Of a stretch of 64,000 nt of DNA, positions 10,843 through 64,000 are shown piece after piece. Source of the DNA: a phage. The notes below the pieces were generated by a model. The model saw only the letters and a program-made list of their open reading frames with translations, had not been told where the DNA came from and did no database searches. The position numbers and the translations under genes are program-made. How positions within the stretch are numbered: position 1 is the first letter of the stretch; each line of letters begins with the position of its first letter. The stretch lies in assembly GCA_016389475.1 (NCBI GenBank), contig GCA_016389475.1_3042.1; one strand, given 5' to 3'.

Positions 10843-10899
10843 AACTTTATGTAAAAATGCTTTAAAACTTTCATGGTATAATGAATCTAAGTCCTTCCA

Positions 10900-14322: not shown

Positions 14323-14559
14323 TTAACCACCTATTTCTGTAGGCGTAAACATTGCAGCATTCTTAGTTTTCCAAGTTGCTGCATCGGAAACTACATCAGA
14401 ATAAGCTGCTTTTTCTGACGGAAAGATTTGATAATGAGAATCTGCAATACGGTGTTCATTTGAATATACATCAAATGCTACAGAAACTTCCATACCTTTA
14501 ACTTCTTTGCCTTCACCTGCTGGATGAGTAAAGGTCTTGATGTTAACGAAACCACCCAT
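14323..14559 (-). CDS. soc: small outer capsid protein Soc
   Basis: ORF track 78 aa; VNIKTF...VSVAF...HYQIFPSEKAAYS matches T4 Soc; AAGGAG RBS. Confidence 0.85.
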   Translation of the reverse strand: MGGFVNIKTFTHPAGEGKEVKGMEVSVAFDVYSNEHRIADSHYQIFPSEKAAYSDVVSDAATWKTKNAAMFTPTEIGG

Positions 14560-14590
14560 AATAAACTCCTTTATTGTTTAATTACAGGTG

Positions 14591-14598
14591 TATTTATA
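14591..14598 (-). promoter_or_regulatory. T4 late promoter TATAAATA upstream of soc
   Basis: plus-strand tatttata = TATAAATA on minus strand, about 30 nt upstream of soc ATG. Confidence 0.55.
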
Positions 14599-14600
14599 AC

Positions 14601-14741
14601 TTACAATTTAGCGGCTTTCCAGAGTTGTTCAATAATCTCTTGGTCTATTTCTTTAGTTATTTCATTACGTAATAAAGCAGTAAGGGCTTTCGCCCTTTTC
14701 TTATTCAACTTTTTGAGTTGACGTTTATTTAAACGAGACAT
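14601..14741 (-). CDS. basic micro-ORF (46 aa), absent from ORF track
   Basis: Hand translation MSRLNKRQLKKLNKKRAKALTALLRNEITKEIDQEIIEQLWKAAKL; start overlaps gene 56 stop. Confidence 0.3.
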   Translation of the reverse strand: MSRLNKRQLKKLNKKRAKALTALLRNEITKEIDQEIIEQLWKAAKL

Positions 14742-15259
14742 TAATAACCTCGGTCCTGACGTGCGAAATTTTCAGCATTTTTCAGGTAATAAAGTTTAAA
14801 GATTTCTTCAGCTGTAAGACCAAGACCCTGGAACATATTCAGAACGAAATGAAGAATATCAATCATTTCAAATTTAATTTCTAACTGGTCTTGCGGAGAC
14901 AAATCAGTAATCAGAGTTTCACGACGCTCACCATGCTGCGACTTCCAAGGTTTCCATACAGCAGATGCGTCTTTTTCACCATTACTCATACCACCAAGAG
15001 AAGTCAGAAGTTCACGGAATTCATCGTCAATATAATCTTTCTGATTACGCAACCAATCAACAACTTCACCGGCAGTAGCCAAGTCATCAGGATGACGATT
15101 ATATTCAGGTTTATCTTTAGCTAAACGAATTTGCAGAGATTTCTGCATGTCAAGCATTACCTGCAGCGGGTCTTTTTCATCACCGAGAATATCCCAATAT
15201 TCATTTTGAGCTTTATCAGCGCCTTCGATCAGTTGACTACATTCGTTGAAATGTGGCAT
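14741..15259 (-). CDS. 56: dCTP/dUTP pyrophosphatase (MazG-like)
   Basis: ORF track 172 aa; size and position match T4 gp56. Confidence 0.85.
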   Translation of the reverse strand: MPHFNECSQLIEGADKAQNEYWDILGDEKDPLQVMLDMQKSLQIRLAKDKPEYNRHPDDLATAGEVVDWLRNQKDYIDDEFRELLTSLGGMSNGEKDASAVWKPWKSQHGERRETLITDLSPQDQLEIKFEMIDILHFVLNMFQGLGLTAEEIFKLYYLKNAENFARQDRGY

Positions 15260-15295
15260 GTTATTTTTCCTTTCAATTCATGGGTTAGTAGATTA

Positions 15296-15320
15296 ATTAT
15301 ACAATAAATATATAAAGCAA
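15296..15320 (-). promoter_or_regulatory. putative MotA-dependent middle promoter for gene 56
   Basis: minus strand reads TTGCTTTA (MotA box), 11-nt gap, TATAAT. Confidence 0.35.
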
Positions 15321-15332
15321 TAAGGAGGACAT

Positions 15333-15533
15333 ATGGTACAAAAATTAATGGCACTTGTTAATGCCATAAAAGGTAATAAAAAACGTATAGCTTTTACTAT
15401 TTCTGCTATGGTAGGAATTTTACTCTGGAACTTTATTCTATCACCTGTTGCAATTGCGCATGGTATTAATATTCCAGTAGTTACTCTTGATACATTTGTA
15501 GATTTAGCATTTGCTTTAGTTGGGTTAATTTAA
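15333..15533 (+). CDS. small hydrophobic protein (66 aa) on the opposite strand
   Basis: ORF track; AAGGAGG RBS 4 nt before ATG; two predicted TM segments; fills the gap between genes 56 and 61; stop overlaps gene 61 stop convergently. Confidence 0.35.
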   Translation: MVQKLMALVNAIKGNKKRIAFTISAMVGILLWNFILSPVAIAHGINIPVVTLDTFVDLAFALVGLI

Positions 15534-16558
15534 ATCTTAGCATATTTAGATAGCCGCATTTTAGCCATCAACCCCTGGGCAATATTATTTTTCATATATT
15601 CCATAATTTGTTCAGGGGTTGCACCTTCCTTTCTAATCATATCATTAACATCTTTTGATTTCCAGGGAGATTTATCCCAAAACATAACCCTTTCTCCTGC
15701 ATCAACTAATTTAGTCATTCGCTTAATAGTGTCAGGATGACGAGGTTCATTATCTAAGACCCACACACGCCTATCTTTAAATGGAACAACTTCTAGGTCT
15801 AATTGACCACCCGTAATAGCTATACCATTTTCAATAAAAAGTGAATCTATAGGTCCTTCTAGAACATATACATCGCCATCTTTAACTCGTTCAACACCGT
15901 AAATTTTTGTTGCCTCAGGATAAGCTTTAATGGTGATATATTTTTGAGGAGCATCTTTCTTTAATGCACGTCCTTGAAAAGACTCAGCTTTTCCATTAGC
16001 ATTATAAATTGGAATAACAAGACGAGGCTCAGAAATTTCCTTTTTGTATGTTCCCGGTGCTATGCTATTAACTAATTTAGGCCATTCGGTTGTAAACCAA
16101 AGATATTTCCATTTATCCTTTGGAATACAACGAGCTTTTACATATTTTATAATTGGATGGTCTTCCGCCAGTTTATCTAATCTAACACACGACGGAAGAG
16201 ATTTAATTATTTTCTTCTCAGGTTGTTTAGGAAGTTCTTTAGGTTTTTCTACTGGACGACTTTTACCTTTTTCTTTTCTTATTTCAAAGATATACTCACG
16301 ATATAAATCGGGTTCAAACTCCTTTAAATATATTCCGATTGGTGCATGATAGTTACAGTTATAACAATGAATATTTCCTTCATTATTATCACCATAATAC
16401 CATCCACGAGCTTTATTCTGATCGGTTTTTGAATCTCCACAAACGGGGCATCTAAACCGCAATTTAAAAGTTGAACTATTATTTACTTGTGTGAATTTAG
16501 GTAAATGAGCCAATGCACGATACGCAAACTCATTATCAATCCAAGGTATTGATGACAT
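15530..16558 (-). CDS. 61: DNA primase
   Basis: ORF track 342 aa; zinc ribbon CPVCGDSK...CYNC and toprim region; length equals T4 gp61. Confidence 0.95.
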   Translation of the reverse strand: MSSIPWIDNEFAYRALAHLPKFTQVNNSSTFKLRFRCPVCGDSKTDQNKARGWYYGDNNEGNIHCYNCNYHAPIGIYLKEFEPDLYREYIFEIRKEKGKSRPVEKPKELPKQPEKKIIKSLPSCVRLDKLAEDHPIIKYVKARCIPKDKWKYLWFTTEWPKLVNSIAPGTYKKEISEPRLVIPIYNANGKAESFQGRALKKDAPQKYITIKAYPEATKIYGVERVKDGDVYVLEGPIDSLFIENGIAITGGQLDLEVVPFKDRRVWVLDNEPRHPDTIKRMTKLVDAGERVMFWDKSPWKSKDVNDMIRKEGATPEQIMEYMKNNIAQGLMAKMRLSKYAKI

Positions 16559-17714: not shown

Positions 17715-17972
17715 CTATTTTAAAACTTCTGCATAATCACATGTTACAAACTGTTTCTCTAGCTTAACGATCTTACGAAAGTATCTTTTGCATTGACGAA
17801 TCTGCCGTTTCGTAGGACGTACAGCAAACTTAATAAATTCCACTCGACCAAATGGAGGGCTTTCTTCTGCCGGAATATCTAACACCAATTCCCACGTATC
17901 CGCAATAAGTGCTTTGAATTGAGTATTTTTCCTGACGTTATACGGAGTAGGTTTAAATAAAACAATATGCAT
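17715..17972 (-). CDS. hypothetical protein (85 aa from ATG), 61.4 position
   Basis: ORF track extended to TTG; ATG at 17972 has GAGGA RBS and abuts dmd stop. Confidence 0.5.
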   Translation of the reverse strand: MHIVLFKPTPYNVRKNTQFKALIADTWELVLDIPAEESPPFGRVEFIKFAVRPTKRQIRQCKRYFRKIVKLEKQFVTCDYAEVLK

Positions 17973-19651: not shown

Positions 19652-19996
19652 TTAAAAGAATTTAAATTTTTTCTTTGACCTTTTATTAAATGCATCTTGT
19701 AGTTGCATTGTAATACATTTTTCTACATGAGGAGCTAACTCAGCTTTTCTTTCTTGGTCAAGAACAGCAAAGTCCATTACGACTTTTCCATCAACCCAAT
19801 CTAATTTTGTCACATACACAATGTGTGTAGAACCATCTTCTAGTTTAATGACAATCTCCTGGATAACATTTTCCATGGCAGATTTAATTATCTTAAGAGA
19901 TTCATTAAAAAGACGTTCTTTTCTTTCTTCTTCCCCCTCCGAAGAGGGGGATTCATCGATAATTTCTAGATCTAAATCTAAATCATCTTTATTCAT
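19652..19996 (-). CDS. 40: head vertex assembly protein gp40 (114 aa from ATG)
   Basis: ORF track starts at GTG 20014; ATG at 19996 overlaps uvsX stop by 8 nt. Confidence 0.65.
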   Translation of the reverse strand: MNKDDLDLDLEIIDESPSSEGEEERKERLFNESLKIIKSAMENVIQEIVIKLEDGSTHIVYVTKLDWVDGKVVMDFAVLDQERKAELAPHVEKCITMQLQDAFNKRSKKKFKFF

Positions 19997-59404: not shown

Positions 59405-59766
59405 TACAAACTCTCGGTGAATGTACGAGCGATAACGTCGCGCTGCTGTTCCGGAGTCAGAGAGTTAAAGCGAACTGCATAACCTGATACACGGATGGTC
59501 AGCTGCGGATATTTTTCCGGATGCTTAACTGCATCTTCCAGAGTTTCACGACGCAGAACGTTAACGTTCAGGTGTTGACCACCTTCAATTTTAACTGCAG
59601 GCTGTTGCTCAATTTCAATTTCACGGGCATGCAAACCATAGAAAATTTCTGGGTCTACAAAAGAGTCCTCTTTAAAGGTTTTAGAAACGATAATTCGTGC
59701 TTGAATACCATCTTCAAAATAAATAGTACCTTTGTGTATGCCTTCAAGAATTTGATATGCTTTCAT
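59404..59766 (-). CDS. autonomous glycyl-radical cofactor (GrcA/YfiD-like)
   Basis: ORF track 120 aa; C-terminal ...[29 protein letters not shown] carries the glycyl-radical motif and appears near-identical to E. coli GrcA from memory. Confidence 0.75.
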
Positions 59767-63173: not shown

Positions 63174-63568
63174 CGTGATTCCTTAACAAATTTCATAATT
63201 TCATCAAATTCATGCGCAGCAAGTTTAAGCTGATGTTCCTTTTTAATCTTTTTACACTGAGCTTTCCAATCACGTACACGTTTACGATAGTGTCTTCCTT
63301 GATACCAATATCCTATCCAATTTATAGGTACTAATAAAAGCGGAACTACCAACGGAAGAATTAGTGTTGCTCCAAATATTGCACCAGATTCAATATCAGT
63401 CATAACGTCTATAACCATTCCAGCAATCACCAGAATCACAAATGATACAACTACCACAGGACCTATTAACACATCAGTAGAAATTATCTGACGCTTTAAT
63501 TCATACTTCAACGGTTTACTTGGAAGGTATAGTGATGGTTTTGACATATTCTCTACATTCCTTAACAA
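63155..63568 (-). CDS. membrane protein (137 aa; ATG at 63547 gives 130 aa)
   Basis: ORF track start is TTG. Confidence 0.5.
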   Translation of the reverse strand: MLRNVENMSKPSLYLPSKPLKYELKRQIISTDVLIGPVVVVSFVILVIAGMVIDVMTDIESGAIFGATLILPLVVPLLLVPINWIGYWYQGRHYRKRVRDWKAQCKKIKKEHQLKLAAHEFDEIMKFVKESRCKSQN

Positions 63569-64000
63569 ATTTTTCTAATAATAAATCGCTTTCAAAATTG
63601 GGATTTTCTACGAATTTATCAAAAAGATCATCGACAATAGTTAAGATATTCTTTTTACTAAGAATACGTTTATTTTCATATTTTGTTTCAGAGTCAACTA
63701 TAAGAGTAAAGAAATATTTCTTGCCCTGAAATTTTACAGTAGTATCAATATAGAATAAATTTGACTTTTGTAAATTACGTTTAAACCATGCATCACTTAA
63801 ACTATAAACGCCAAGATAATCATAATCGTCGTTTAAATAACAGACCGTCCATTCAGGAGAAACAAAATCAGTAAATTCAACGTCAAAATCGCATGTTAAT
63901 GAATGAATTGATTCAATACTGTTAATAAGTATTCCAGGACGTATTAAAGACTTTTTACCTCTAGAAAATCTTCCAGAAAGATTTTCATCAGTTTCATATG
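63516..64000 (-). CDS. hypothetical protein, C-terminal ~160 codons (start beyond window end)
   Basis: Open minus-strand frame from window end to TAA at 63516-63518; fragment ends ...KFVKECREYVKTITIPSK. Confidence 0.45.
   Translation of the reverse strand, partial: YETDENLSGRFSRGKKSLIRPGILINSIESIHSLTCDFDVEFTDFVSPEWTVCYLNDDYDYLGVYSLSDAWFKRNLQKSNLFYIDTTVKFQGKKYFFTLIVDSETKYENKRILSKKNILTIVDDLFDKFVENPNFESDLLLEKFVKECREYVKTITIPSK

Follow-up and report, generated by a model that had tools for sequence, protein, structure and literature searches.

We found that the phage DNA analysed here (one stretch of 64,000 nucleotides, referred to below as the window), a segment of a Tequatrovirus genome, carries between genes 56 and 61 a plus-strand open reading frame (ORF), dam.1, that is very likely a genuine and conserved gene of the Tevenvirinae, probably transcribed late in infection and encoding a protein that probably has a single transmembrane (TM) segment; an accessory role of this protein at the cell envelope late in infection is put forward as speculation. 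Positions 15100-15700 of the window are 100% identical to Shigella phage Sf23. The original prediction, made from the letters of the sequence, had described a plus-strand ORF of 66 amino acids (aa) that is preceded by a strong AAGGAGG ribosome-binding site, fills a 270 bp gap between genes 56 and 61, and has a stop codon overlapping that of gene 61. Each of these features was borne out by the ORF listing, by the distance from the Shine-Dalgarno (SD) sequence to the ATG, and by the coordinates of the two flanking genes (Table 1). The prediction had placed the start of the feature at position 15296; this position belongs to the -10 hexamer of a minus-strand middle promoter, whereas the coding start itself lies at 15333.

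Table 1. Features of the gene 56-gene 61 interval of the window.
Feature	Position	Strand	Details
dam.1 ORF (Dam.1 / PHROG 2024 family)	15333..15533, stop included	+	ATG start, 66 aa; ORF listing
Shine-Dalgarno AAGGAGG of dam.1 ORF	15322..15328	+	4 nt 5' of ATG
T4 late-promoter-like box AATAAATA	15303..15310	+	sequence match; consensus TATAAATA, positions -13 to -6
Gene 56 middle promoter	15296..15319	-	MotA box TGCTTTA 15313-15319, 11-nt spacer, -10 TATAAT 15296-15301
Intrinsic-terminator-like hairpin and T-run	15338..15367	-	hairpin 15367..15348, T-run 15347..15338; terminator scan; within dam.1 codons 2-12
Gene 56 (dCTPase)	14741..15259	-	
Gene 61 (primase)	15530..16558	-	
TTAA common to both convergent stops	15530..15533	.	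dam.1 TAA 15531-15533; gene 61 TAA = complement of 15530-15532

The start region of the ORF is interleaved with signals on the opposite strand. A pattern search confirmed the predicted overlap with the middle promoter of gene 56; the pattern has three matches in the window, against 0.04 expected, and the identical sequence in Yersinia phage fPS-90 is annotated as 'predicted middle promoter'. The plus-strand late-promoter-like box sits in the spacer of this minus-strand promoter. The hairpin and T-run within the first codons of dam.1 coincide with a 'terminator' annotated at the same place in fPS-90. Since this terminator-like hairpin lies in codons 2-12, the gene 61 transcript is probably antisense to the whole of the dam.1 ORF, terminating at its 5' end. 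The description of the ORF as an antisense-embedded gene can be kept in part: the gene is genuine, but it is not embedded in another gene, its antisense partner being the 3' untranslated end of gene 61 mRNA. We also observed an exact match to the MotA-box/-10 pattern (TGCTTTA-N12-TATAAT) on the plus strand at 10858-10882. This match has the wrong polarity for T4 middle transcription, and may be a chance occurrence or an unrecognised start.

Although the ORF had been presented as filling an otherwise unexplained gap, it is not new. It is annotated as dam.1, hypothetical protein, in T4T (HM137666; ADJ39749.1), and the gene is already known from hundreds of Tevenvirinae records, grouped as PHROG 2024 and uncharacterised. 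RB32 ORF030w and pVOG VOG1982 belong to the same family, and all of these entries are hypothetical or have no function assigned. Most other records read 'hypothetical protein', and one reads putative membrane protein. We considered three further names and judged them to be erroneous: 'putative head morphogenesis protein' (T6, AP018814), 'Holin' (UniProt, OE5505), and 'DNA packaging ATPase', the last given to homologues in Klebsiella phage SAKp28 and Yersinia phage P8. In the T4 RefSeq record, NC_000866, the interval between dam and gene 61 is unannotated and contains an intact 66-codon ORF at ~17738-17938 (locus L003, 2739-2939), the product of which differs from T4T Dam.1 by A25T. The window ORF resembles T4T dam.1 in its length, its convergence with gene 61 and its stop overlap, with no substantive difference between the proteins. 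The locus itself differs from that of T4T in having no dam, so that gene 56 is the immediate neighbour of the ORF, and the middle promoter of gene 56 falls within the region upstream of the ORF. The present analysis adds a quantitative demonstration that the ORF is under coding selection, identifies a late-promoter-like box conserved upstream of it, points to single-pass topology as likely, and shows how the gene is intertwined with the middle promoter of gene 56 and the terminator of gene 61.

Searches for relatives returned the family itself. The window protein matched no Pfam family at E<=10, and scans of this protein and 16 homologues against Pfam, NCBIfam and PADLOC gave no significant relatives. 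A PDB profile search with the dam.1 family found no relative, and a Foldseek search against BFVD found family members only. An exhaustive phmmer search of 1.84 billion representatives gave family members or fragments and, apart from these, only spurious matches to long proteins; two of the latter were inspected and proved to be repetitive. At the level of nucleic acid, no Rfam family was detected over positions 15150-15650, and a repeat search at the locus gave nothing meaningful. Our literature searches, which covered dam.1, T4 Ribo-seq, transcription start site mapping and unannotated small proteins, found no mention of the gene and no expression data.

We next describe the distribution of the family. 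A tblastn search with the dam.1 protein matched 697 phage records, with at least 80% of the query covered in 687 of them. Identity is 90-100% in Tequatrovirus, ~50-55% in Mosigvirus and Gaprivervirus, and ~20-38% in Dhakavirus, Kanagawavirus, Jiaodavirus, Moonvirus and Gelderlandvirus; the protein is 100% identical in Shfl2, PhiZZ30 and other phages, and 98.5% identical to that of T4T. A search from the Kanagawavirus homologue added Dhakavirus, Jiaodavirus (Klebsiella phages), Moonvirus, Gelderlandvirus and Edwardsiella phage PEi20, for a total of 946 records. Records with a dam.1 homologue thus number ~946, as compared with ~954 records that contain a primase at least 60% identical, and on these sequence matches dam.1 appears to be near-universal in the Tevenvirinae. 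In every genome inspected (eight genera), dam.1 lies between genes 56 and 61, on the opposite strand and tail-to-tail with gene 61. The same 4-nt stop overlap as in the window is seen in Mosigvirus, Dhakavirus, CIP9, Gelderlandvirus and T4T; in Jiaodavirus, a hairpin or an extra gene lies between the dam.1 ORF and the primase gene. No dam.1 analogue was found at the matching position in Krischvirus, Slopekvirus, Acinetobacter phage Ac42 or Serratia phage 92A1, and the family therefore looks confined to the Tevenvirinae. In Krischvirus KFS-EC (MH560358; locus L031, 2244-2807), the gap on the downstream side of the primase gene is filled by an unannotated 187-aa ORF of the same orientation as the primase, with HNH/AP2-like motifs (...HIDGNPENN...); no Dam.1 homologue is present at this place.

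Two further observations concern the architecture of the locus. The gap between gene 56 and the dam.1 ORF (15260-15332 in the window) is an insertion hot spot. It holds nothing in the window, which has no dam gene at this locus, dam in T4, a homing endonuclease gene in fPS-90 and many other phages, and both dam and a hypothetical gene in OE5505. Whatever is inserted on the gene 56 side, dam.1 and gene 61 remain joined tail to tail. Gaprivervirus genomes carry two tandem dam.1 paralogues, one Tequatrovirus-like (A-type) and one Dhakavirus/Kanagawavirus-like (B-type), at 1295-1492 and 1501-1701 in locus L007 and at 1295-1492 and 1384-1770 in L026, and also in L006 and L017. In VR7 the B copy carries a frameshift, and in TH57 and one other isolate it is truncated, pointing to redundancy and decay.

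Conservation of the family is seen at the level of individual residues. The window protein matches PHROG 2024 with E=1.4e-31, residues 2-66 aligning to profile positions 1-65 of 65, and the profile is matched by 16/16 diverse dam.1 homologues. W32, N33 and P38 are invariant in all 35 aligned sequences; that is, W-N-x4-P is found in every one of them, across eight genera and at identities down to ~20-30%. A40, G44, P48 and G64 are conserved in at least 90% of the 35 sequences, and residue 53 is usually acidic. The window protein has the full motif, W-N-[FLY]-x3-P-x-A-x3-G-x3-P-x4-[DE], following a basic N-terminus.

The length of the dam.1 ORF is, by itself, weak evidence for a gene. Shuffling of the gap yielded an ATG-ORF of at least 60 aa in 39 of 5000 trials (0.8%), and the plus strand of the window has 35 ATG-ORFs of at least this length, almost all of which run antisense to real genes. 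dam.1 is the only one of these 35 with a strong SD. It is also one of four that have little overlap with minus-strand ORFs of 60 aa or more. The other three have no SD (1107-1355, 14524-14721 and 63535-63729), and those at 1107-1355 and 63535-63729 have no obvious gene-like features. Since length is insufficient, it is conservation across relatives that places dam.1 beyond chance. Among 11 Tequatrovirus sequences, pN/pS is 0.18 in the dam.1 frame, as compared with 0.27-2.3 in the other five frames, and variable sites fall at codon positions 1/2/3 in the numbers 10/2/14. Corresponding values are 0.15 and 6/0/10 for Mosigvirus, and 0.27 and 16/3/22 for Gaprivervirus. Between genera, dam.1 DNA is only 53-59% identical and pS is 0.63-0.76, which brings synonymous sites close to saturation; despite this divergence, the ORF keeps its frame, length, start, SD and W-N-x4-P motif. 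We found GGAG within 16 nt 5' of the dam.1 start in 31/31 loci from eight genera. Phage OE5505 has a deletion of three codons, in frame, within the ORF. Together, the sequence comparisons indicate that dam.1 is a real gene under purifying selection, and, because it is under such selection, that it does something useful.

The original prediction had left open whether the ORF is a genuine gene or a chance ORF in a promoter region. A chance ORF would owe its persistence to DNA kept for other purposes, namely the 3' tail and terminator of gene 61 and the middle promoter of gene 56. The 5' end of dam.1 does overlap the minus-strand terminator and adjoin the middle promoter, the window is AT-rich and holds the 35 long plus-strand ORFs noted above, and the T4 RefSeq record has no annotation of the ORF. 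We nevertheless regard this explanation as extremely improbable, because substitutions are concentrated at synonymous sites of the ORF's own frame in three genera, because frame, length, start, SD and W-N-x4-P outlast the divergence of the DNA between genera, and because the terminator hairpin, present in Tequatrovirus, is not conserved in other genera, and because an in-frame indel is present. For the same reason, that the gene 61 hairpin is restricted to Tequatrovirus, we rejected dual constraint from this hairpin as a general explanation. Conservation at the protein level in relatives had been named beforehand as the observation on which the prediction could fail, and it clearly favours a genuine gene. 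On the substitution patterns and their recurrence in several genera, we consider it excluded that a chance ORF has been kept merely by overlapping promoter or terminator DNA.

The position and sequence of the box upstream of dam.1 suggest that the gene is expressed late. ATAAATA corresponds to positions -12 to -6 of the T4 late promoter, TATAAATA, and transcription is predicted, from the position of the box, to start at ~15316. The heptamer starts 19-29 nt before the dam.1 ATG (8-nt box at -20 to -30) in 29/31 loci; in the remaining two, from Moonvirus and Gelderlandvirus, TAAATA is found at the same place. In the same sequences, the background frequency of ATAAATA is 0.0002 per nt, equivalent to a ~0.5% chance per 25-nt interval, and the DNA flanking the box is unalignable between genera. 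The distance from the box to the ORF is held whether the upstream gene is gene 56, dam, a homing endonuclease gene or another gene, indicating that the box belongs to the dam.1 ORF. An assignment of ATAAATA to the minus-strand middle promoter, which it overlaps, was considered but rejected; the distance to the ORF is kept in T4, which has dam at this place, and in Mosigvirus and Dhakavirus.

The polarity of the gene points in the same direction. Early and middle T4 transcripts are of one polarity, and late transcripts are of either polarity (Geiduschek and Kassavetis review, PMC2988020). Because early and middle transcription use only the other strand, a plus-strand gene in the early region can only be late. 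The base at -13 is off consensus in 27 of the 29 loci with the box (A in 14, C in 8, G in 5 and T in 2). A is the commonest variant at -13 in T4, being found in 9/50 listed late promoters (PMC2988020), and a survey of other T4-like phages reports that the T at -13 is poorly conserved (PMC1524935). We also found [TA]ATAAATA at 14598 on the minus strand for soc, a known T4 late gene present in the window. As compared with gp55-type late genes of T4 such as soc, dam.1 of the window has a box with one deviation (A at -13), the usual short distance to the SD and ATG, and a location on the strand that is used by late transcription only; the family differs from T4 late promoters, as judged here from sequence alone, in rarely having T at -13. 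Because T is rare at this position, and because two genera have only TAAATA, the dam.1 promoter may be weak. We conclude that dam.1 is most likely a gp55-dependent late gene: RNA polymerase carrying gp55, the late factor of the phage, would initiate at the AATAAATA box late in infection only, and a short leader with a strong SD would drive translation of the 66-residue protein. Two further plus-strand [TA]ATAAATA boxes were observed at 59718 and 60521, both inside minus-strand genes and with no credible plus-strand ORF downstream; these boxes may be the starts of late antisense transcripts.

We then considered the topology of the protein. Residues 1-18 include five K/R and no acidic residue. 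Residues 19-41 have a 19-residue Kyte-Doolittle score of ~2.0, and the equivalent segment scores 1.65-2.66 in seven family representatives, in all of which it is a clear TM segment. The C-terminal 20-25 residues score 1.9 in Tequatrovirus, with no K/R, and carry D53 and D57; the corresponding segment is less hydrophobic (0.7-1.3) in Jiaodavirus, Gelderlandvirus and Kanagawavirus PEi20, where it includes E, K, H or R. An AlphaFold2 model built from the 35-sequence alignment has helices at residues 2-13, 16-42 and 52-63 and a loop at 43-51, with moderate confidence (mean pLDDT 70.5, pTM 0.38). Of the two hydrophobic helices in the original prediction, the first (19-41) is thus supported as a TM segment across the family, whereas the second is less secure, being hydrophobic but with two Asp in Tequatrovirus, too polar or too short in the other genera, and only 12 residues long (52-63) in the AlphaFold2 model. 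The window protein ends in ...AFALVGLI, with no K/R after residue 18.

According to the positive-inside rule, the basic side of a membrane protein stays cytoplasmic. From the hydropathy profiles and the model, dam.1 is most likely a single-pass inner-membrane protein of N-in/C-out orientation with a short periplasmic tail; a tight helical hairpin is possible for the Tequatrovirus proteins, given their more hydrophobic C-terminal segment. In the single-pass arrangement, an N-terminal amphipathic helix (residues 2-13) would be followed by a basic cluster, K13-R18, kept in the cytoplasm, then by one TM helix (~19-41) bearing W32-N33 and P38, all three invariant, by a short loop in which G44 and P48 are nearly invariant, and by an acidic or amphipathic C-terminal helix of ~12 residues on the periplasmic side. 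An Asn in a TM segment, adjoining a Trp and five residues before a Pro, is the type of feature that mediates helix-helix association in membranes. The buried polar Asn of dam.1 may accordingly promote association in the inner membrane, either of dam.1 with itself or with another membrane protein.

The dam.1 protein has no enzyme-like features. We tentatively propose that it may act through TM interactions as an accessory factor at the envelope late in infection, for instance in the timing or inhibition of lysis, in superinfection or in membrane integrity; we regard this role as possible, and well short of probable. Dam.1 is similar to Imm, Sp, RI and single-TM (class III) holins in its size, its predicted inner-membrane or periplasmic site and its T-even-like restriction. 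This resemblance is one of kind only, and no similarity of sequence or fold was detected outside the dam.1 family. The genes for Imm and Sp are early ones and lie on the opposite strand, and the periplasmic domain of RI is larger. An alternative role is that of a permeabiliser of the holin, pinholin or Hok type, in which a two-TM hairpin or a single-TM oligomer would depolarise the inner membrane late in infection. A small, predicted late protein with one or two hydrophobic segments would suit such a function, as would the acidic residues inside the second hydrophobic segment of the Tequatrovirus proteins; the OE5505 orthologue carries the automatic UniProt name 'Holin', and 2/16 homologues weakly match the holin-like YwcE family (E=0.014, not regarded as significant). 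Against this, no member gives a significant match to a Pfam holin or Hok/Gef model, the C-terminus lacks the charged tail typical of holins and is instead hydrophobic or neutral, the neighbouring genes encode dCTPase and primase with no endolysin or spanin gene adjacent, and the second segment is not TM-competent in most genera. T4 gene t is necessary for lysis, and the dam.1 protein therefore cannot be the T4 holin. A holin- or Hok-like permeabiliser is thus unlikely, and is a weaker candidate than an accessory role at the envelope.

The antisense arrangement of the locus raises the possibility that the main function lies in the RNA, with the peptide secondary: late read-through from dam.1 would shut off primase, or the tail of the gene 61 transcript would silence the ORF early, in the manner of a type I toxin-antitoxin system. 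The ORF is fully antisense to the gene 61 transcript tail, up to the terminator in codons 2-12, and the stop codons overlap in five genera. In the window, there is no plus-strand terminator between dam.1 and gene 61, and the next plus-strand terminator-like site found by the scan is at 19729, so late dam.1 transcripts would run antisense into gene 61. As in type I systems of the Hok/Sok kind, a small hydrophobic peptide gene would have an mRNA fully complementary to a transcript from the opposite strand, as judged from the terminator; unlike in those systems, the antisense partner is the 3' tail of primase mRNA, with no dedicated small RNA, and we found no Hok/Gef Pfam match and no Rfam match. 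However, purifying selection at the amino-acid level and the invariant SD argue that the peptide matters, and read-through into gene 61 is not conserved, since Jiaodavirus has its own downstream hairpin or an intervening gene. We therefore disfavour antisense control of gene 61 as a conserved function, and consider a mainly RNA-level role to be very unlikely. A further reading is that dam.1 encodes a hitherto unrecognised late inner-membrane effector, acting for example in lysis inhibition or timing, or in late superinfection or defence evasion, that is gated by mutual antisense with primase mRNA. Early in infection, the gene 61 3' tail would silence dam.1, and late in infection, read-through from dam.1 would silence gene 61. 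We regard this reading as doubtful.

Although T4 serves as the reference phage for the whole family, dam.1 is missing from its RefSeq record, NC_000866, and studies based on this annotation will therefore overlook the gene. The protein would also be nearly invisible to shotgun proteomics, because the lack of K/R after R18 would leave a single hydrophobic tryptic peptide of 48 residues (19-66). dam.1 is otherwise an ordinary hypothetical gene that is already annotated; as a probable late membrane protein, it is a small and concrete target. If the doubtful reading as an antisense-gated late effector were true, it would add to T4 both a new gene function and a new regulatory layout.
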